Shown here piece by piece: positions 10,364 to 33,364 of a stretch of DNA of 46,504 bases. Numbering within the stretch: position 1 is the first letter of the stretch; every line of letters begins with the position of its first letter. Both the position numbers and the translations under genes were made by a program. The stretch is from Planctomycetota bacterium (GTDB lineage Bacteria; Planctomycetota; UBA1135; UBA2386): positions 1 through 46,504 of the forward strand of contig DAIMFJ010000002.1 of NCBI GenBank assembly GCA_036724695.1, read 5' to 3'. A model generated the notes under the pieces. That model made no database searches and was not told the origin of the DNA. It saw only the letters and a list, made by a program, of their open reading frames with translations.

Positions 10364-11182
10364 ATGCGCGGCCTACTCGTCGTCCCCGTCGGTGCCCTGT
10401 TCGCGGCCTGCAGCACCCCGTCGCTGCGCGACCCGCAGATCCTGGTCTCACCGTACATGGCGGTCTACCAACTGCGCGGCGACACCAAGATGGAGTCGCA
10501 ACCGGGCGGGGTCGGGCCGATCGTCGCCAACGACAGCCAGGATCTCGGGCAGTTCGGTGTCGGCGGCCACGAGGAGGACGTCGGCGTGCGCATCGACCTC
10601 GGCGACGGCTTCGGCGGCTTCCGGCTGGACTACTACCAGCTGGACATGGCGACGTCGAAGTTCGGCGTGCTGAGCGACGACTGGGGCGCACTGCCGGCCG
10701 CCTCGCGCGTGCAGATGGAGCAGTCGATGGACGAGTACCGGCTCGGCTTCGTCGAGCCGATCTACGCGACGAAGACCGAGTTCCGCGACCGCCCGCTCGA
10801 CCTCCGCTTCGGCGCGGGCGCGGTGCTGTCGCAACGCACCCTGCACCTGCGCGGCACCACCGACGACTACCTGACCCGGCAGAACGTCAAGGCGACCGGC
10901 CAGAACGTCTACCCGGCGGTGCGCGCGCAGGCGAAATGGCGCGAGTTCCGTGTCGACCTCGAGTACGCGCTCTGCCCGGACCTGCAGCTCGGCGGCGATT
11001 TCGACGGCGTGTTGCAGGACCTGGAGATGCGACTGACCTACGAGGTGCCGCTGCGCGACCTGCGGCTGTTCGCCGGCTACCGGTACAGCACGTTGCCGAT
11101 CGCCGGTACCCAGGGTTCGTTCGACTACGAAGCGGACCTGGTACTCGACGGCCTGCAGATCGGCCTGCAGCTGACCTTCTAG
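10364..11182 (+). CDS. outer-membrane beta-barrel lipoprotein (predicted)
   Basis: Signal peptide plus lipobox (LFAAC). Alternating hydrophobic beta-strand pattern and an aromatic C-terminus (..GLQIGLQLTF), typical of BAM substrates. Confidence 0.65.
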   Translation: MRGLLVVPVGALFAACSTPSLRDPQILVSPYMAVYQLRGDTKMESQPGGVGPIVANDSQDLGQFGVGGHEEDVGVRIDLGDGFGGFRLDYYQLDMATSKFGVLSDDWGALPAASRVQMEQSMDEYRLGFVEPIYATKTEFRDRPLDLRFGAGAVLSQRTLHLRGTTDDYLTRQNVKATGQNVYPAVRAQAKWREFRVDLEYALCPDLQLGGDFDGVLQDLEMRLTYEVPLRDLRLFAGYRYSTLPIAGTQGSFDYEADLVLDGLQIGLQLTF

Positions 11183-11222
11183 GCTGACCTTCCCGGCTGA
11201 CCTGCCAGGCTCGTCCGCCAGG
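11171..11222. repeat. decaying 13-bp tandem repeat (3-4 units) straddling the stop codon of the beta-barrel gene
   Basis: CTGACCTTCTAGG / CTGACCTTCCCGG / CTGACCTGCCAGG / CTCGTCCGCCAGG at 11171, 11184, 11197 and 11210. The TAG stop (11180..11182) lies inside unit 1. Confidence 0.6.
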
Positions 11223-11243
11223 CCGTCGCGCCACCGCGCTGGC

Positions 11244-12692
11244 TCAACTGCCGGCGATCGCCGCCAGCTCCTGCACGAACGCGTCCATCGCCGCGCGGGC
11301 TTCGCCGTTCGCACAGGTGTAGTCGTTGAGCAGCAGCGAGAACACCAGCGGCGGTGCATTCGGGTCGGCGCGCGGCACGTAGCCCGACAAGCCGGCGACC
11401 CGCGCGATGTAGCCGGTCTTCGCGGCCACGCGCCCGTTCGCCGGCCCGTCGGCGAAGCGGTTGCGGAGCGTGCCGCTGCGGCCCGCGACCGGCAACCCGG
11501 CGACGAAGGCGTCGCGCCACGGCGAACGCTGCGCCGCGACCAACAACGCAGCGAGCTGCCGCGGCTGCACCAGATTGCGCCGCGACAGCCCCGAACCGTC
11601 GGCCAGCACCATGCCGTCGGTCGGCACGCCCAATTCGGCCAACACGGCCTTGGCGTGCCGTTCGGCGGCAGCCGTCGAACCATCGCCGGTGCGCAGCCGC
11701 GCGGCCCACCGCCAGACTTGCTCGGCGTACAGGTTGTTGCTGTCCCGCAGCAGCGGCACGACGATCGACGCGAGCGGGGGTGACACGTGCGTCGCCAGCA
11801 CTTCCTCCACCGCCGACTCCGGCACCTCGGCCGCGACCAGCTCGACGCCCGCCTGCTGCAGCGCCACCATCAGGCGCTCGGCCGCGGCCGCGGCCGGATC
11901 GGCGACGGCGACACGCAGCGCACGCGGCTTCGCATCGGCAGCGATGCGACCCCGCACCCGTACGACCATGCTGCCGAGCGGCCGCTGCACCGTCAGGGCC
12001 GTCTCCTGGCCCGCGGCCACCTGCTCGACCTCGGCGACCAGCGCGACGCTCGGCAGGTCGGCGACCACGGTGGGCCGGCCCTCGGCACCCGGGGCCACCG
12101 TCAGCGTGACGACGTTGCCAGCACAGCACAAGCCGCCGAACGGCGCGGCGTAGTCGGCCTCGAGGTAGTCCCACTGCCAGCCGAGGCCGAGTGTCTCGTC
12201 GCCTTGCCACGACCCGTCGCCGCGCACGCGCCCGACCACACGCTGGATGCCACGCTGCCGCACTGCCGCCGCGAACGCCGCCAGCGCACGTCCGTCGTCC
12301 TCGCCGAACGTCGGATCGCCACCGCCACGCAGCACCAGTTCGCCGCGCAGTTCGCCGCCCGCGACGACGCCAGAGAGCGACAATTCGGTGCGTGTGGTGG
12401 CCGTCGGACCGAGCGCGGCGAGCGCCACCGCCGTGCTGACGACCTTCATGTTCGAGGCCGTCGCGTAGCCCAGATCGGCGCCATGGGCCGCCAACGTCGC
12501 CCCGGAGCCGGCGTCGACGACGATCGCACCGACCCGACCACCGGCCAGTTGTGGCGCGGCCACCAGCTTGCCAAGGGCCGCGGCCACGCGCGCGGCGTCG
12601 CCAGCCGGCGCCGCGACCGGTGTCGTCGTCGTGGCGCACCCGGCGGCGAGCCACAGCAAGGCCATTCCAACCAACGAAGAGGTGCGCACCAT
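11244..12692 (-). CDS. dacB: D-alanyl-D-alanine carboxypeptidase/endopeptidase (PBP4, peptidase S13)
   Basis: Lipobox LAAGC. SxxK motif ASNMK. DGSGLSRRN (SxN region). AKTGYI (KTG). Length of 482 aa is typical of PBP4. Confidence 0.85.
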   Translation of the reverse strand: MVRTSSLVGMALLWLAAGCATTTTPVAAPAGDAARVAAALGKLVAAPQLAGGRVGAIVVDAGSGATLAAHGADLGYATASNMKVVSTAVALAALGPTATTRTELSLSGVVAGGELRGELVLRGGGDPTFGEDDGRALAAFAAAVRQRGIQRVVGRVRGDGSWQGDETLGLGWQWDYLEADYAAPFGGLCCAGNVVTLTVAPGAEGRPTVVADLPSVALVAEVEQVAAGQETALTVQRPLGSMVVRVRGRIAADAKPRALRVAVADPAAAAAERLMVALQQAGVELVAAEVPESAVEEVLATHVSPPLASIVVPLLRDSNNLYAEQVWRWAARLRTGDGSTAAAERHAKAVLAELGVPTDGMVLADGSGLSRRNLVQPRQLAALLVAAQRSPWRDAFVAGLPVAGRSGTLRNRFADGPANGRVAAKTGYIARVAGLSGYVPRADPNAPPLVFSLLLNDYTCANGEARAAMDAFVQELAAIAGS

Positions 12693-18117: not shown

Positions 18118-19365
18118 TCAGCACCGCACCTCCTTCGCCTCGATCGCCAGGTGCTCGCGCCGCGCCCACTGCACGATCGCCTGCGCACACGAACGCGTCG
18201 GAGCGGCATTGTCCGGCCCGCGAACCTGCACGATCGCCTGCGTGTCGGGGCGCACTTCGACCGTCGCGAGCGAACGCACGACGGGACCGCGCCGGCTGCG
18301 CAGCGACCAGATGCGCGCGGTGCCGGCCTGGCAGCGGGCGGCATAGGTCGCGACGCAATGCTGCATGGCGCGACTCTCGAGTTGCAGGTCGCGCGGCGAG
18401 CGCAATTCGACCAGTTCCCAGAGCAGCGGGTCGCGGGCGGGCTCATCGGCGGTGGCCGGGCGCCCGGCTTCGCGCAGCAAGGTCAGCGGCGCATACGCGG
18501 AAGCCGGCCAGCGCGCGGTTCCCGCGCTGCCGCGACCGAGGGCGGCGTGCCAATGCCGCGCCAGTCGCAACACCGAGGCCAGCGTGCGGCCGGTGAGTTC
18601 GAAGTCGGGTTGCGGCGGCTCGAGCACCAACGGGCCGTCGGGCCCTTCGACCTCGGTGCGGTGCAAGCGGACCCCGTGCACGAAATCGACGACGACACCG
18701 ACGTCGAGCGGGTCGAGCGTGGCCTGCACCCGCACGAGGAACTGGCCGACCGTGCGCCAGAAATCGGCGTTCGTCAGGTCGTGGCCCATGCGGGTGGCGA
18801 GGACGCACTGCGCCAGCTCGGCGCTCGCGCCCAGCCCGAGCAACTCGGCACGCCGCAGCGCCTGCGCGATCGTCAGGTGCGGCGGCGAGGTCTGGAAGTG
18901 ACGCTCCATGCGCCGCGTCAGCGGCAACGGCAGGTCGAGGTGACGCAAGGGCCGGCCGGCGGCGTGGTCGAGGAACCAGCGGCGCGCCCGCACGGCTTGC
19001 TGGTCCATGCCGCCACGCCAGACCTGGTGCAGCACGCGCGGCACCGGGTAGCGCGCCAGCAGGTGTGCGGTCAACGACACCGCGGCGTCGTTGGCCGAGC
19101 CGGTGCAGCCGGGCCAATCCGCGGCGTCGCGCACGAATTCGTCGCGCGCCGCGGCGAGATTGCGCAGCCATTCGAGTTGGGGTTCGCCGGTGTCGGGCAG
19201 GGCGTCCTGGTGCAGCAGCACGGACCGCTGGCGCACCCGTAGGCAGAGGTCGAGGAACGTCGCGCGGGTCGCGGCGGTCGGCAGGGAATTCAGGTAGTGG
19301 CGGCAGCTGCGGTCCAGGCGCAATCGGGCATGGCGCGAGCCGCCGTGGGTACGGAGGGCTGGCAT
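18118..19365 (-). CDS. PcfJ-like domain protein
   Basis: The C-terminal block ..LVELRSPRDLQLESRAMQHCVATYAARCQAGTARIWSLR...VEV... matches the conserved L..L.eEG..M.HCV..Y...c..G...I.S.R core of PcfJ-like proteins. The N-terminal 300 aa are unassigned. Confidence 0.65.
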   Translation of the reverse strand: MPALRTHGGSRHARLRLDRSCRHYLNSLPTAATRATFLDLCLRVRQRSVLLHQDALPDTGEPQLEWLRNLAAARDEFVRDAADWPGCTGSANDAAVSLTAHLLARYPVPRVLHQVWRGGMDQQAVRARRWFLDHAAGRPLRHLDLPLPLTRRMERHFQTSPPHLTIAQALRRAELLGLGASAELAQCVLATRMGHDLTNADFWRTVGQFLVRVQATLDPLDVGVVVDFVHGVRLHRTEVEGPDGPLVLEPPQPDFELTGRTLASVLRLARHWHAALGRGSAGTARWPASAYAPLTLLREAGRPATADEPARDPLLWELVELRSPRDLQLESRAMQHCVATYAARCQAGTARIWSLRSRRGPVVRSLATVEVRPDTQAIVQVRGPDNAAPTRSCAQAIVQWARREHLAIEAKEVRC

Positions 19366-20456: not shown

Positions 20457-21617
20457 ATGGGCGTGTGTCGCACCACCTGGGCGGTGGCCGGCTGCTGCAC
20501 AGTGATCGTGGGCGGCATGGCCCTTGCGTCGTGGACGCATCGGGCGAGCGACGACCTGCGGCTGGAACTCGAGCGCAAGGTGGCGGCGATCCTGGCTCGC
20601 CAGCCGGCCCCGGTGTACCGCGACTCGGCACTGTGGGGCGAGACGCTCGCGGGCGAGGCTTCGACCCACTATGCGAGCGCGGTGGCGGCACAGGGGACCC
20701 TGGAGATCATCCGTTGGAATGCCAAGGCGGGCGAGTTCTTGGAAGGGGGTGCGGCGGTGCCCCGCGAACGCCAGGAACGACTGCGCGAGCAATGGGCACC
20801 GTTCCTCGACGCCGTGCGGGCCGGGGCGCATCGCAAGGTGGCGCCACCATCGACTTGGCAGATGGGCAGGCTCGGAAACGTCGATGCGGCACTGACGCTC
20901 GAGCTGCGCTCGCGGCTGCGTGAAGGGCGCACGGAGGCGTTCCTCGAGCTGTGGCTCGATGCGTTCACCTGTGCCGTCGACTACTGGCTGGCAACCAGTG
21001 GGAACTGGCGCGAACAGTGGCCGCGGAATCTCCTGCACCTCCTCGACGACGACGTGCTGCGGTCGCTGCCAGCCCAGCAGTTGGAGCAACTCGAGCAATG
21101 CCTGGGCAACGCCGACCGCCTGGCAGCGACGCCGATCGACCCGATGGCCATCCTGGCGCAGTGGATCGAGCATCGGCTCCGGACCGCGCATCTCACACGG
21201 CATGGCGTGCGCAGCCACTTGGCCGCGTGGCAGCATGGCTTCGATCCGCTGCGTGCCGACCTGCTCGGCTTCGACGAGCTCCTGGACCTGCAATCCCTGC
21301 TCGAACCTGCAGCCACCGACACCGCGGCACGAGCGGCCCAGTGGGCTGCGTATCGGGCGGCCCCGCGTCCGCGGATCACCCCGCTCAGCGATCAGTACCA
21401 CCAGCTCCTGGAGGCTGCCGAACGGCAACACCTCCAGGTCGTGGCGCAGATGCGGGTCCTCCGGATCGCCGCCAACTTCCACCGCGGTGGCGAGCTGCCG
21501 GTGCTCGCCGATCCGTTCGCCGCTGGGCCGCTGCAGGTGCAGGTCGACGGCGACGAAGCCACCATCGGCAGCGCCAGCAGGTTCGATGGCAGTCAGCGCA
21601 TCGCGCGGCGCCGCTGA
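20457..21617 (+). CDS. hypothetical membrane-anchored protein
   Basis: 386 aa. One N-terminal hydrophobic segment (TWAVAGCCTVIVGGMALASW), then a helical Leu/Trp/Glu-rich body. No family recognised. Confidence 0.55.
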   Translation: MGVCRTTWAVAGCCTVIVGGMALASWTHRASDDLRLELERKVAAILARQPAPVYRDSALWGETLAGEASTHYASAVAAQGTLEIIRWNAKAGEFLEGGAAVPRERQERLREQWAPFLDAVRAGAHRKVAPPSTWQMGRLGNVDAALTLELRSRLREGRTEAFLELWLDAFTCAVDYWLATSGNWREQWPRNLLHLLDDDVLRSLPAQQLEQLEQCLGNADRLAATPIDPMAILAQWIEHRLRTAHLTRHGVRSHLAAWQHGFDPLRADLLGFDELLDLQSLLEPAATDTAARAAQWAAYRAAPRPRITPLSDQYHQLLEAAERQHLQVVAQMRVLRIAANFHRGGELPVLADPFAAGPLQVQVDGDEATIGSASRFDGSQRIARRR

Positions 21618-21631
21618 GCGCGGCGCCGCGC
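21603..21631. terminator. GC-rich palindromic duplication/hairpin between convergent genes, with the stop codon in the loop
   Basis: GCGCGGCGCCGC-TGA-GCGCGGCGCCGC. Each copy contains the palindrome GCGGCGCCGC, so the two copies can pair as a ~10-bp stem with the TGA of the 20457 gene in the loop. No U-tract follows. Confidence 0.35.
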
Positions 21632-21638
21632 GACACCG

Positions 21639-22610
21639 TCACAGGTTGGTGCGCAACGCCGTCAGGATCCGCTGCGCCCGCGCGCCGACCTTGCTGCCCT
21701 CGGCCCCCTTGAGGAAGGCCTCCAGCCGCTTTGGCGCACCTTCGCCGTTGCCATCGCGCAGGGGTTTGATGACCTTGGCGAGTTTGCCGTCGAGCGACAA
21801 TTCGGCCTTGCCGTTCTCGGTCGCGAACGTCGCGAGCAGCTCCGCCGCTTCGCTCGCCCAGGGCTCGTGTCGGCCGACGCCCTTGACGAGTTCCTTGGCG
21901 AGATCGTGGGCCCGATCCCAACGACCGTCCTCCTGCAGGGCCGTGACCGACTTCTTCCGACTGGCATAGCGGGTGTCGATCTCCAGTTGCAGTGCCGTGC
22001 GGGCGTCGCCTTCGGGCATCGCCTGCACGACCGCGAGGGCGGCGGCGAAGTTGGACTTGCCGTAGAGCGCCTGCCGGACCTTGCGCGCTTCGGCGGTGTC
22101 GCCCCAACCCTTCTTGACCTTGTCGAGTTCGACCGCGATCAGCTCTTCGACCTTCTTGGCATCACGGATCGGGTTGCCCCACCACAACAACTTGCCGTCG
22201 ACGCCGATCAGGGCACCGTTGGGCAAACCGCCGCTCGACGGGGTCGGTACGGCCCCGTTGACGCAGGCGAACGCATCGCAATCCGGGAACTTCATCCACA
22301 GGAAGCCTTCGAGCGCCGCTTCATCGGCACCCTGGCGTTCCATCAGGATGGTCACCAGACCCTTGCTGGAGAGTTCCTTGTCCTTCTTGACGGCGCTCGG
22401 CACGGAGACGCCAATGCAAGGGCCTCAACGTGTGCCCCAGAAGTCGATGACCACCGGCTGGCCGAAGAACTCGGCGAGATTCTGCCGGCCGTCGCCGTTG
22501 AGCAACTTGGGGAAGGCGAAGTCGGGGACCTGGTCGCCGAGGCTGGCGGCCTGCTGGGCGCAGAGCGACGTCGCGAGGAGCGCCAAGGCGAGGAACGGTG
22601 AGGCTTTCAT
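21639..22610 (-). CDS. secreted TlpA/ResA-like thiol:disulfide oxidoreductase with in-frame UGA at the CxxC position (candidate selenoprotein, U-G-P-C) plus a C-terminal helical extension
   Basis: Track ORFs 22425..22670 and 21639..22403 share one frame and are separated only by the TGA at 22425..22427. Start at MKASPFLALALLATSLCAQQ (22610). The junction reads VVIDFWGTR-[TGA]-GPCIGVSVPSAVKK, which aligns with FWGTWCxPC of the TlpA/ResA family. The remainder of the Trx fold (..GLVTILM.., ..LPNGALIGVDGKLLWWG..) is downstream of the TGA. Confidence 0.55.
22392..22412 (-). promoter_or_regulatory. bSECIS-like hairpin 12 nt downstream of the in-frame UGA
   Basis: mRNA GGCG-U-CUC[CGUGCC]GAG-CGCC: 4 bp, a bulged U, 3 bp, then a 6-nt loop containing GU. 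Folded by hand only. It resembles the E. coli fdhF SECIS apical hairpin (bulged U, GU in the loop, ~11-nt spacer). Confidence 0.4.
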
Positions 22611-22684
22611 ATGGCACGGCCCGGGGCTGTCCTGGATGGTACCCTGGCATCTGTCGCACGATTGTCGCAACCCATCGAGACCCT

Positions 22685-23659
22685 GTGGAACATCGCCCGA
22701 TCCCCGGCACCGAACTGCAGATCGCCCCGCTCGCCCTGGGCGGCTGGTTGACCTTCGGCGGTTCGCTCGACGACGACACGTCGCTGAGGTTGCTGCATCG
22801 AGCCACCGCCGCTGGGGTCAACTTCCTCGACCTCGCCGACGTCTACGCGCACGGCGCGGCGGAACGGGTCGTCGGTCGCTTCCTGCGCGAGACCGACGCA
22901 AGTCGACTGGTGGTCAGCAGCAAGGTGTTCTGGCCGATGAGCGACGACCCTGGTGATCGTGGCCTGTCGCGGCGCCACATCCACGCGTCGATCGACCGCA
23001 CGCTGCAGCGCCTCGGCCGTGAGCACGTCGCCCTGTATTTCTGCCATCGCGAGGATCCGAGCGTGCCGCTCGCCGAGACGGTGCAGGCGATGGGCGATTT
23101 GGTGGCGATCGGCAAGGTGCGGGCCTGGGGCACCAGTTGTTGGCAGGCCAAGACGTTGCGCGAATCGCATCGGTTGGCCGCGCAACTCGGCGTGGCGCCG
23201 CCGCGCGTCGAGCAACCGAAGTACAACCTGTTCGACCGCTGGATCGAGCTCGACGTGGTGCCGGCATGCCAGGAACTCGGCATCGGCATCGTCGTCTGGA
23301 GCCCGTTGGCCAGCGGGGCGCTGACCGGCAAGTACCTCGACGGCAAACCGGCCGGCAGCCGGGCTGCGACCAGCCGCTGGGTCGACGACTACCTGACGCC
23401 GGAACGACTCGCCGCGGTGCGGGCGTTCGTGGCGCTGTGCCGCGAGCTCGGCCACCCACCGGCCGCGGTCGCACTGGCGTGGGCGATGGCGCAGCCGGGC
23501 ATCACCAGCGCGATCATGGGTGCGACCAGCGAGGCGCAACTCACGAGCAATCTGGCCGCCAGTTCGGTGGTGGTCGATGCGGAGCTGGGGCGGCGGCTGG
23601 ACGCGATCTTCCCGCCGCCGCGGCGTTCGTGGTGGAAGCGGATGTTGCGGCGCGGGTGA
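22685..23659 (+). CDS. aldo/keto reductase (Tas/Kv-beta-like)
   Basis: ..LQIAPLALGGWLTFGG.., ..GVNFLDLADVYAHGAAERVVG.. (Asp/Tyr), ..VVSSKVF.. (Lys), ..ALYFCHRED.. (His), ..GIVVWSPLASGALTGKY.. GTG 22685 is preferred over the track's 22598 start, which would overlap the divergent gene's start. Confidence 0.8.
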   Translation: MEHRPIPGTELQIAPLALGGWLTFGGSLDDDTSLRLLHRATAAGVNFLDLADVYAHGAAERVVGRFLRETDASRLVVSSKVFWPMSDDPGDRGLSRRHIHASIDRTLQRLGREHVALYFCHREDPSVPLAETVQAMGDLVAIGKVRAWGTSCWQAKTLRESHRLAAQLGVAPPRVEQPKYNLFDRWIELDVVPACQELGIGIVVWSPLASGALTGKYLDGKPAGSRAATSRWVDDYLTPERLAAVRAFVALCRELGHPPAAVALAWAMAQPGITSAIMGATSEAQLTSNLAASSVVVDAELGRRLDAIFPPPRRSWWKRMLRRG

Positions 23660-28178: not shown

Positions 28179-29561
28179 ATGACCAGAACCAACTTCCTCC
28201 TCCTCCCCTTCGTCCTGCTGGCCGCTTGTGGCGGCGGGGGCGGCAACAGCGGCAGCGCCAGCGGCGCTCCGCTGCCGAACCCGCTCGGCTCGGTGCACGT
28301 CGTGCTCGACACCGCGACCGGCAGTGACGCCCTGGTGCAGCTCCAGGTCGCCGCCGCCTTCCTCGAACGAGGCGACGGCAGCACGACCGGCAACCTGCTG
28401 CCCGCCGCGACGATGCTGACGTTCGCGGACCCGATCGGCGAAGCAGCCGGTCTGGTGCTGCGCGCCGCCCCGACCGGCGTGTATGCCAACCTGCACCTGG
28501 TGCTCGCCCCGGGCAGCGGCACCCTGCTGCGCAGCGACGGCTCGACGGCGGCGATCGCCGCCCCGGCCGACCTCGTGGTGCCGATCTTCGACGGCCTGCA
28601 ACACGACGGCAGCCGCCGGTCCTGGCTGGAGGTCGCGCACCTCGGTGCCCCACCGAACGCCGGCACCTGGCAACCGCGCCTGCAGGCGCGCGCCGACGGC
28701 GGCAGCCGCACGCTCGCGGCATTGCGCGTCGCCGCCAGCACGGCGAGCGCGGTGACCGCGATCTGGACGCCGGCCGCGGACGGCCCGCTTGGAGTCGAGT
28801 TCGCAACCAACTGCCGCTTCCTCGACGACGCCGGTGCGGCCCTGGGTGGCGCCGCGGCGTTCCTGACCGGGCTCGGCGCCAGTGACGATCTGGTCGTCGC
28901 CGGACGGCTGTTCCGCGACGGCACGTTCGCCTGTGACCAGGTGCAGCGCCAGAGCCGCAACGACCAGCCGCGCCTGCTCGGCCGCATCACCGCGATCGAC
29001 CCGTTGCATCGGACGTTCTGGCTCGACGTGTTCGCCGAGGTCCGGCGCGGCGAACGCCGCCTGCTGGCGACCGCGCGGCCGACCGCGGTGGCGGCGGCGA
29101 CGGCGCGCCTGCACCGCCATGGCGAACGTCTGCCAGCTGCGTTCGGCGACCTGGCGGTCGGTCAGGTGGCGAAGGTCGAGTGGCGCAGCAGCTCGACGCT
29201 GCCGAACAACCTGCCGCAGGTCGTCGCAACCGAGATCGAGTTCGCCGGGCCGGGCACCTGGGCACCTCTGCAGCCGGAGTGGGAAGGTCGGGTGCTCGCC
29301 GTCGACACCCAGCTCGGCACCATCACGGTCGTGCCGCGCGGCAACGATCCGATCGTCGTGCAGGGCCAGAACGTCGCGCAGGCGACGGTGACGGTCGACG
29401 CCAACACCTACCTCGAGCGCCGCCAGCGCCAGGGCGGCGCTCGATCGCGCATCGCGCTCGATGCGATCGTCGCCGGTGGCGATCGCATCTGGTGGCGTGG
29501 TACCGTCGAACAGACCGGATCGATCCAGGCGACCTGGGTCCGGGTGCGGGACGACAGCTGA
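28179..29561 (+). CDS. lipoprotein (DUF4382-like N-terminal domain and DUF5666-like repeats suspected)
   Basis: MTRTNFLLLPFVLLAACGGGGG (lipobox LAAC plus a Gly linker). ..VHVVLDTATGSD...PTGVYANLHLVL.. resembles DUF4382. ..GRITAIDPLHRTFWLD.. and ..GRVLAVDTQLGTITVVP...TVTVDANTYLE.. resemble DUF5666 units. It ends 5 nt before the activator gene. Confidence 0.7.
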   Translation: MTRTNFLLLPFVLLAACGGGGGNSGSASGAPLPNPLGSVHVVLDTATGSDALVQLQVAAAFLERGDGSTTGNLLPAATMLTFADPIGEAAGLVLRAAPTGVYANLHLVLAPGSGTLLRSDGSTAAIAAPADLVVPIFDGLQHDGSRRSWLEVAHLGAPPNAGTWQPRLQARADGGSRTLAALRVAASTASAVTAIWTPAADGPLGVEFATNCRFLDDAGAALGGAAAFLTGLGASDDLVVAGRLFRDGTFACDQVQRQSRNDQPRLLGRITAIDPLHRTFWLDVFAEVRRGERRLLATARPTAVAAATARLHRHGERLPAAFGDLAVGQVAKVEWRSSSTLPNNLPQVVATEIEFAGPGTWAPLQPEWEGRVLAVDTQLGTITVVPRGNDPIVVQGQNVAQATVTVDANTYLERRQRQGGARSRIALDAIVAGGDRIWWRGTVEQTGSIQATWVRVRDDS

Positions 29562-29566
29562 GGACC

Positions 29567-33364
<3,798 letters not shown>

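Follow-up and report, generated by a model that had tools for sequence, protein, structure and literature searches.

A predicted selenocysteine-containing TlpA/ResA-like oxidoreductase with a C-terminal helical domain from uncultured Planctomycetota

Thioredoxin-fold proteins that bear selenocysteine (Sec, or U in protein motifs) as the first residue of a UxxC motif constitute the commonest class among predicted bacterial selenoproteins. Catalogued families with this motif include the "Prx-like thiol:disulfide oxidoreductase" (PF00578) and the "Redoxin family protein" (PF08534, equivalent to GOS "Prx-like 3") (PMC13188914 Table 1, PMC1794560, PMC2398784), along with the "thiol-disulfide isomerase-like protein" and the "UGC-containing TlpA disulfide reductase" (PMC1794560, PMC2398784, PMC13188914). 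The gene considered here lies on the minus strand at positions 21639..22610 of the window, i.e. the whole 46,504-nucleotide stretch of contig DAIMFJ010000002.1 (GenBank assembly GCA_036724695.1) from a Planctomycetota bacterium, and typifies a predicted family that works in the same way. We consider it highly probable, on the basis of comparative sequence analysis, that it is one gene for a 323-residue exported thiol-disulfide oxidoreductase, in which Sec takes the place of the first cysteine of CxxC and a TlpA/ResA-like fold is combined with a helical-repeat domain. An earlier interpretation made from the letters of the window (hereinafter the sequence-only reading) had proposed a selenoprotein at this site, and in all testable respects it is supported.

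With the Prx-like and Redoxin UxxC selenoproteins the window protein shares a fold of the thioredoxin/AhpC-TSA type, a UxxC motif that begins with Sec, the existence of Cys homologues, a bacterial Sec insertion sequence (bSECIS) directly downstream within the coding sequence, and the status of a prediction. The combination of PF08534 and UxxC that marks the "Redoxin family protein" selenoprotein (representative HEU0032618.1, GOS "Prx-like 3") is also found in the window protein, the two having been compared by domain and motif only. Unlike these selenoproteins, the window protein possesses an additional C-terminal helical domain of ~155 aa without a Pfam or PDB relative, and the named matches and genome records of its family all derive from Planctomycetota metagenome-assembled genomes (MAGs). 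Furthermore, whereas GOS "Prx-like 3" is dominated by Cys forms (68 Sec versus 2,608 Cys sequences; PMC2398784), Sec-type members of the window family outnumber its CxxC members by ~5:1.

A different set of similarities connects the protein to the Cys-containing TlpA/ResA/CcmG (DsbE) enzymes (PDB 1jfu, 1st9, 3gl3, 2b1k), namely an exported thioredoxin fold, the W-x-x-x-C-x-x-C motif and the cis-Pro loop. By analogy with these it probably reduces periplasmic disulfides, but it differs from them in having Sec for the nucleophilic Cys and in the added helical domain. Orthology to ResA (PRK03147, 27.3 versus 170 bits) and to TlpA (NF047696, 19.4 versus 230 bits) was rejected, and no cytochrome-maturation or Sco/Cox genes occur among the neighbors of the selenoprotein gene in the window and related loci. 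The ResA-like NF041054 family ("WAxxUGC_long") likewise describes a TlpA/ResA-like selenoprotein of similar length (its profile has 354 positions), in which the thioredoxin domain also lies close to the N-terminus; however, its motif is U-G-C, as against U-G-P-C here, and membership of the window protein, with its WGTR-U-GPC, was rejected at 14.6 bits against a cut-off of 300. No NCBIfam model covers the window family, and given scores so far under the cut-offs of the ResA, TlpA and WAxxUGC_long models, sequence comparison places the protein in a family separate from all three.

The reading frame and the fold of its product

The gene and the codon in question were delineated as follows:

21639..22610, minus strand: complete coding sequence of the predicted selenoprotein, 323 codons from the ATG at 22610 to the terminal TGA at 21641..21639, with the Sec-UGA as codon 62; recognized as an otherwise open frame with a sole TGA, both halves of which are conserved among homologues.
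22425..22427, minus strand: in-frame UGA (codon 62), proposed to encode Sec as the first residue of the redox motif.
22416..22427, minus strand: U-G-P-C redox motif, the predicted counterpart of the CGPC of thioredoxin and the C-x-P-C of Cys homologues, from homologue and PDB alignments.

The sequence-only reading started from two minus-strand ORFs (open reading frames), 22425..22670 and 21639..22403, said to share one frame and to be separated by a single TGA. This is what the window contains, with only the TGA at 22427..22425 between them. The true start of the upstream ORF is the ATG at 22610, and the called start of the downstream one is a GTG eight codons past the TGA. Read-through from the ATG yields the junction ...QPVVIDFWGTR-U-GPCIGVSVPSAVKK..., and the peptide across the Sec position is ...DFWGTR-U-GPCIGVSVPSAVK. 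The expectation that gene callers would split such a gene is borne out by the called ORFs of 61 aa and 254 aa, the 3' piece being a "hypothetical protein" at NCBI. TGA serves as the stop codon in 14 of the 16 Pfam-supported genes of the window, the selenoprotein gene included, so the genetic code is not reassigned, and genome-wide TGA reassignment was rejected on this ground.

The assembly collection lists the exact 254-aa product in 29 of its blocks, and the carrying contigs were read from 23 of these; in all three places displayed from the collection the split into 61 aa and 254 aa is identical. A stretch of 48 nt that spans the TGA and the hairpin described below is shared by four independent assemblies (one each from JGI and Logan, two from ENA), which rules out a read or assembly error. 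The sequence-only reading had wished to see the TGA verified in raw reads, and its recurrence across independent assemblies speaks to the same point.

The domains of the predicted protein are:

22551..22610, minus strand: predicted N-terminal signal peptide (MKASPFLALALLATSLCAQQ); a similar hydrophobic N-terminus (e.g. MK..LLLALPLAAQQ) is found in nearly all relatives, and residues 1-20 are of low pLDDT (predicted local distance difference test) in the AlphaFold2 (AF2) model of a Cys homologue.
22116..22538, minus strand: TlpA/ResA/DsbE-like thioredoxin-fold domain, ~residues 25-165, including the invariant cis-Pro-type P130; from Pfam, PDB sequence matches, AF2 and Foldseek.
21642..22103, minus strand: C-terminal all-helical domain, ~residues 170-323, with eight helices in AF2.

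The signal peptide suggests that the selenoprotein is exported to the periplasm. For the Pfam and PDB sequence searches Cys was substituted for the in-frame stop. In Pfam this gave a marginal match to Redoxin (PF08534, 26.8 bits versus a cut-off of 26.6, residues 25-89) and a score below threshold for AhpC-TSA (PF00578, 19.1 versus 26 bits). Sequence matches in the PDB (E = 1e-5 to 2e-3) comprise a redoxin-domain protein (28db), DsbE (3gl3) and ResA, and their CxxC motifs align on U-G-P-C (WCGPC in 3gl3, NCPPC in 28db), in agreement with the earlier assignment of the UGA to the first position of CxxC in a TlpA/ResA/DsbE-like fold. The full-length AF2 model is that of the Cys homologue P0004, which is 57% identical to the window protein; at a pLDDT of 93.3 it consists of a thioredoxin fold preceded by a disordered signal region at the N-terminus and followed by a C-terminal half made of helices. 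In Foldseek its first domain retrieves DsbE (3gl3), ResA (2h1b and 1st9) and related periplasmic thiol-disulfide oxidoreductases with TM scores of 0.73-0.80, and the model has the CxxC at the N-terminus of helix 1 and a cis-Pro loop.

The helical domain was also modeled from the window's own residues 165-323 (159 aa), giving a pLDDT of 94.8 and eight helices. The sequence-only reading had put this extension at ~190 aa, which is too long, as it actually spans ~155-170 aa. A comparison with PDB structures retrieved only faint TPR-like matches for this domain (P58IPK, BamD and YbgF; best E = 0.36), and it has no match in Pfam.

Predicted selenocysteine and cysteine forms among relatives

A scan of one genome per GTDB species recovered 31 loci, all in Planctomycetota MAGs. 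At the DNA level TGA occupies the exactly homologous codon in 28 of these; two others, L016 and L024, have TGC there, and L028 is cut off and does not include this part of the gene. Upstream of the TGA the loci share the type of signal peptide and a ...FPxFLNGDGRQxLxEFxGQPVxID.WGT[HR] stretch, with an ATG start ~61 codons ahead of the TGA. None of the 31 loci has scattered stops or frameshifts, and both halves of the protein are conserved among homologues, in line with the earlier argument that a frame which continues to code past the UGA is unlikely to be that of a pseudogene. One genome, L006, additionally carries a TGC paralogue in tandem with its own TGA copy (L006:10001-10975 and about 11150-12120); such an arrangement, familiar from certain other Sec/Cys enzyme pairs, could provide a selenium-independent backup.

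In a protein search 98 homologues were found, and all matches with a named organism were again Planctomycetota MAGs. About 85 of the 98 are 252-257 aa long and start at [M/V]PSAI right past the TGA position, and the remaining 13 are full length (315-329 aa) and have C-x-P-C at the position aligned to U-G-P-C. Thus the column at the UGA codon is a clean alternation of Cys and Sec, as the sequence-only reading had predicted for a genuine selenoprotein. The Cys forms are scattered among the Sec forms instead of forming one clade. In one instance two orthologues in the same gene neighborhood differ in state, L035 having the TGA and the hairpin, and L036 having TGC with the upper stem gone. To judge from the sequences, this syntenic pair directly displays a Sec/Cys exchange, one that is repeated within the family. 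TGA is also present at the Sec codon in the divergent L037 (U-P-S-C) and L038. The Sec state was checked in DNA at the 28 genome loci and in seven look-ups (L034, L035, L037-L041), and for the other short proteins it was deduced from the called ORF start.

A hidden Markov model (HMM) search of 1.84 billion representatives extended the family to 665 clusters at E <= 1e-3, with 281 at E <= 1e-10. Among the best 148 clusters, 86 are shorter than 300 aa and mostly start with [MV]PxA[IVL], the signature of Sec-type truncation, and 60 are full length, of which ~17 have CxxC, a few xxxC and ~38 no Cys motif at all. These cluster counts indicate that Sec is the commonest predicted state of the redox-active branch, the scaffold also occurring in apparently redox-inactive versions.

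The distant full-length relatives that lack both Cys and Sec (e.g. P0139, P0144, P0145, P0147 and P0150) keep the thioredoxin-like scaffold and the helical domain, with active-site regions such as W-x-D-x-x-x-G-M-D and F-R-R-H-I-P-D-G-L-H, and look like redox-inactive paralogues. In P0122, a protein of 2,581 residues, 23 separate stretches match the family profile, the best of them at profile positions 120-197 in the helical part. This suggests that the helical module also exists in a long tandem-repeat form in a giant protein.

Nucleotide signals on either side of the UGA

Two features of the nucleotide sequence flank the proposed Sec codon:

22392..22412, minus strand: bSECIS-like hairpin, with the 5' arm at 22412..22405 (GGCG-U-CUC), the loop at 22404..22399 (CGUGCC) and the 3' arm at 22398..22392 (GAGCGCC).
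22428..22433, minus strand: the two codons before the UGA (ACA CGT), an unusual conserved nucleotide context, from codon counts at the same position in the close clade (L001-L031).

The hairpin proposed by the sequence-only reading, GGCG-U-CUC[CGUGCC]GAG-CGCC, is present at 22412..22392 and begins 12 nt past the UGA. It has 7 bp and a bulge, and by itself folds with a minimum free energy (MFE) of -10.4 kcal/mol. RNAalifold, applied to an ungapped alignment of the TGA-bearing sequences, independently recovers the same hairpin, with helices of 3 bp and 4 bp separated by a single bulged base and capped by a loop of 6 nt. The window copy deviates from this consensus only in the bulged base (U26, not position 25), the bulge of most relatives being a G or A one position before that of the window. 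Across the alignment, with L037 and L038 included, 95.1% of the cells of the hairpin are paired, versus 31-56% when the partners are slid by 1-3 columns; five of the seven pairs have changes on both sides, and none of 500 shuffles attains the observed values. The loop CGUGCC is invariant in all 32 sequences, again inclusive of the divergent L037 and L038.

The codons that make up the hairpin are fixed as follows, in comparison with their usage elsewhere in the same genes:

Val GTG (+8 from the UGA): 28/28, versus 29% elsewhere.
Ser TCC (+7 from the UGA): 25/25, versus 24% elsewhere.
Ser AGC (+10 from the UGA): 25/25, versus 35% elsewhere.
Ala GCC (+11 from the UGA): 28/28, versus 46% elsewhere.

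The codon window of the hairpin has the highest synonymous conservation of the whole gene (0.98 versus a gene mean of 0.77). As these codons are fixed against the genes' own usage, the hairpin is not a by-product of amino-acid conservation. Where the Sec codon is replaced by TGC, as in the L006 TGC copy, L016, L024 and the syntenic L036, the hairpin is lost or degraded, with altered hairpin codons (S to A, or S to N/T/A) and a stem that has disappeared or been replaced. The earlier expectation that the hairpin would be conserved where TGA is present thus holds, and the comparisons argue that it is under RNA-level selection linked to the presence of the TGA. The GTG within its loop (22403..22401) is the false start that ORF finders used for the 254-aa fragment.

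In E. coli fdhF the established bSECIS is a hairpin that closely follows the UGA within the coding sequence, its stem having a bulged U and its small apical loop a G-U. All of these features are shared by the window hairpin, the bulged U in the window copy; however, its sequence differs, its stem is shorter (7 bp and one bulge) and a lower stem is weakly supported. The possible lower helix (CxUGC with GCAyG) would pair 22420..22416 with 22386..22382 on the minus strand, i.e. alignment columns 14-18 with 48-52, where 74% of the cells are paired and many are not, and variation among G-C, U-G and A-U is seen at one pair of synonymous sites only.

Published rules for bacterial SECIS elements specify a loop of 3-9 nt with a G in its first two positions, usually followed by G or U, a distance of 16-37 nt from the UGA to the loop, and an MFE <= -7.5 kcal/mol (PMC13188914). 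The window hairpin conforms in each respect, with a loop of 6 nt, G at loop position 2 followed by U, a UGA-to-loop distance of 20 nt and the MFE given above.

On the 5' side of the UGA the codon at -1 ends in T in all 28 close-clade sequences (CAT in 24 and CGT in 4), although elsewhere in the same genes His is encoded by CAT in 16% of cases and by CAC in 84%. At -2, ACA is used in 14 of the 21 cases with Thr, versus 2% elsewhere in the same genes. This upstream context is absent from the divergent L037 (AAA) and L038 (CGC), the bias being confined to the closer clade. It may tune termination or Sec insertion, and such biased codons provide a concrete handle on which features of the context help bacterial Sec insertion.

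Proposed decoding, alternative explanations and genomic surroundings

Direct support exists for the single frame, the Sec/Cys column, the conservation and covariation of the hairpin in association with TGA, and the fold, whereas decoding by SelB, export, and the direction and substrates of the redox reaction are inferred. Standard bacterial Sec insertion is the most likely mechanism. SelB, carrying GTP and Sec-tRNA(Sec), would recode the UGA at 22427..22425 while tethered by the hairpin through its apical loop CGUGCC, with G-U at loop positions 2-3, and the bulged stem, such that the ribosome at the UGA would insert Sec as residue 62 in place of terminating. The signal peptide would then direct export, and the U-G-P-C pair would cycle between the selenol/thiol and selenenylsulfide states, thereby reducing, exchanging or isomerizing periplasmic disulfides, with the helical domain probably acting as a substrate- or partner-recognition module. 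None of this calls for a new mechanism: the gene is an unannotated addition to a known class of bacterial selenoproteins, and the known principles of their synthesis are unchanged.

Several observations weigh against decoding as Sec. In a single-sequence fold of 61 nt the hairpin region is not exceptional (z = -0.81, with 41 of 200 shuffles folding equally well); the sequence around it is 70% G+C, and the window sequence alone does not establish the hairpin, whose significance derives from comparison with relatives. The covariation in turn comes from five divergent sequences only (L027, L030, L031, L037 and L038), the rest being near-identical in the hairpin. Rfam, searched at gathering thresholds and at permissive E-values on 22340..22460, returned chance snoRNA and miRNA matches but no relevant family. 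Across the loci of relatives there is no conserved operon partner that would point to a substrate. Neither selA, selB, selD nor tRNA-Sec was found by ARAGORN on the window and the 31 loci or by tblastn with E. coli SelA, SelB and SelD against ~490 kb of related loci; this absence is uninformative rather than negative, because sel genes usually lie elsewhere in the genome. In favor of Sec decoding, its occurrence in the phylum is documented, with complete Sec-insertion gene sets in other Planctomycetes, namely Gemmata, Isosphaera and two Porphyra-associated strains (PMC4807772). A scan for further genes with an in-frame TGA, by G+C at third codon positions (GC3) on both sides of each TGA, yielded only this family and ordinary adjacent genes. 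Sec at position 62, and with it the incorporation of selenium, is a prediction drawn from sequence comparison.

That the TGA is a nonsense mutation of TGC in an ordinary TlpA-like gene, or a sequencing or assembly error, might be entertained inasmuch as the two codons are one base apart and gene callers take the TGA as a stop. But divergent subfamilies and 28 species-level genomes share the same TGA, in genes that are constrained in both halves and free of other lesions, and the TGA is embedded in identical sequence in independent assemblies; a decayed or misread codon would moreover leave the nucleotide-level conservation of the hairpin unexplained. The comparative data effectively refute this explanation, whose probability we regard as negligible. 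A genuinely split gene, in which the UGA ends translation and the GTG at 22403 starts a 254-residue protein of its own, with the hairpin serving reinitiation or attenuation, would account for the presence of a GTG or ATG 8 codons past the TGA in most members, hence the choice of the callers, and the many distant full-length relatives without the Cys motif imply that the scaffold can work without redox chemistry. Such a split, however, would break the thioredoxin fold within its active-site motif, with G-P-C deprived of its partner, and would strand the signal peptide on a 61-residue piece, thereby denying export to the 254-residue piece. Where Cys orthologues occur in the same genomic context they are uninterrupted, and the supposed start is the Val codon of an invariant V-P pair in the hairpin loop, where no start is needed to explain a GTG. 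We therefore hold a split gene to be very improbable.

Read-through of the UGA without Sec, by a near-cognate tRNA-Trp or tRNA-Cys or some other form of recoding, with the hairpin as a generic stimulator, is a further alternative to which we assign only a small probability. It would fit the failure to find sel genes in the window and the ~490 kb searched, and the codon bias upstream of the UGA suggests that context does affect the efficiency of termination. Yet the UGA falls exactly at the nucleophilic Cys of the homologues, a classic Sec/Cys pair, and the position of the hairpin, its loop size and the G-U in its loop match the consensus of SelB-dependent bSECIS elements. Trp at this position would abolish the redox motif, and a TGA read as Cys would bring no gain over TGC.

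Public data contain at least ~85 protein clusters of the family (at 90% identity) in split or truncated form, labeled "hypothetical protein" and deprived of the signal peptide and the active site; among the best 148 representatives at 50% identity, the 86 short ones mostly look truncated too. Recognition of the Sec codon restores what is predicted to be a complete exported redox enzyme and marks out an entire clade of uncultured Planctomycetota as likely users of Sec, and the syntenic orthologues offer a natural data set of Sec/Cys exchanges and of the gain or loss of SECIS hairpins. We tentatively raise the further possibility, in which our confidence is limited, that this selenoprotein family is in no catalogue: an exported TlpA-like domain joined to a structurally unsolved helical-repeat domain, confined so far to Planctomycetota MAGs, with Sec dominant and probably ancestral in a redox-active branch that is accompanied by redox-dead paralogues, and with a recoding signal that perhaps extends upstream of the UGA (ACA-CAU/CGU) as a second determinant of the efficiency of Sec insertion.

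The window is ordinary chromosome. Its genes encode IspD, an ABC exporter, a peptidyl-prolyl isomerase (PPIase), S13 and S41 peptidases, TsaD, CarA, an enoyl-CoA hydratase (ECH), an aldo-keto reductase (AKR) that is the divergent neighbor of the selenoprotein gene, ProRS, a kinase/sigma-54 activator, AsnB, CarB and a transaldolase. Synteny is limited to the closest relatives L001, L002 and L034, and the neighbors that recur elsewhere are unrelated (ROK, metallo-beta-lactamase, DUF2959 and an FAD/FeS oxidoreductase). One further element adjoins the gene:

21601..21633, no strand assigned: inverted repeat (TCGCGCGGCGCCGC / GCGGCGCCGCGCGA), GC-rich and perfect over 14 bp, around a loop of 5 nt; it lies between the convergent selenoprotein gene and ORF 20457..21617, 5 nt past the stop codon of the former.

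It is without a U tract, hence unscored by the terminator scan, and is possibly a transcript-end hairpin.

Within the otherwise syntenic block CarA ... ECH ... selenoprotein ... AKR ... ProRS lie a PcfJ-like gene (18118..19365, minus strand) and a 386-aa ORF without a Pfam match (20457..21617, plus strand). Neither has a counterpart in the syntenic L001 and L002, and both are present in the 96%-identical L034; this pattern is suggestive of a lineage-specific insertion. For the divergent aldo-keto reductase ORF (22598..23659, plus strand) the GTG listed as its start gives an overlap of 13 nt with the start of the selenoprotein gene. The L034 orthologue of this ORF is called at 324 aa, not 353, from which the real start in the window is probably near 22685, with a divergent intergenic region of ~74 nt. 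Further along, the plus-strand gene at 29180..33364 encodes a 1,394-aa regulator that unites a Ser/Thr protein kinase, TPR repeats, a GAF domain, a sigma-54 AAA+ activator and a Fis-type HTH (helix-turn-helix) in one polypeptide.

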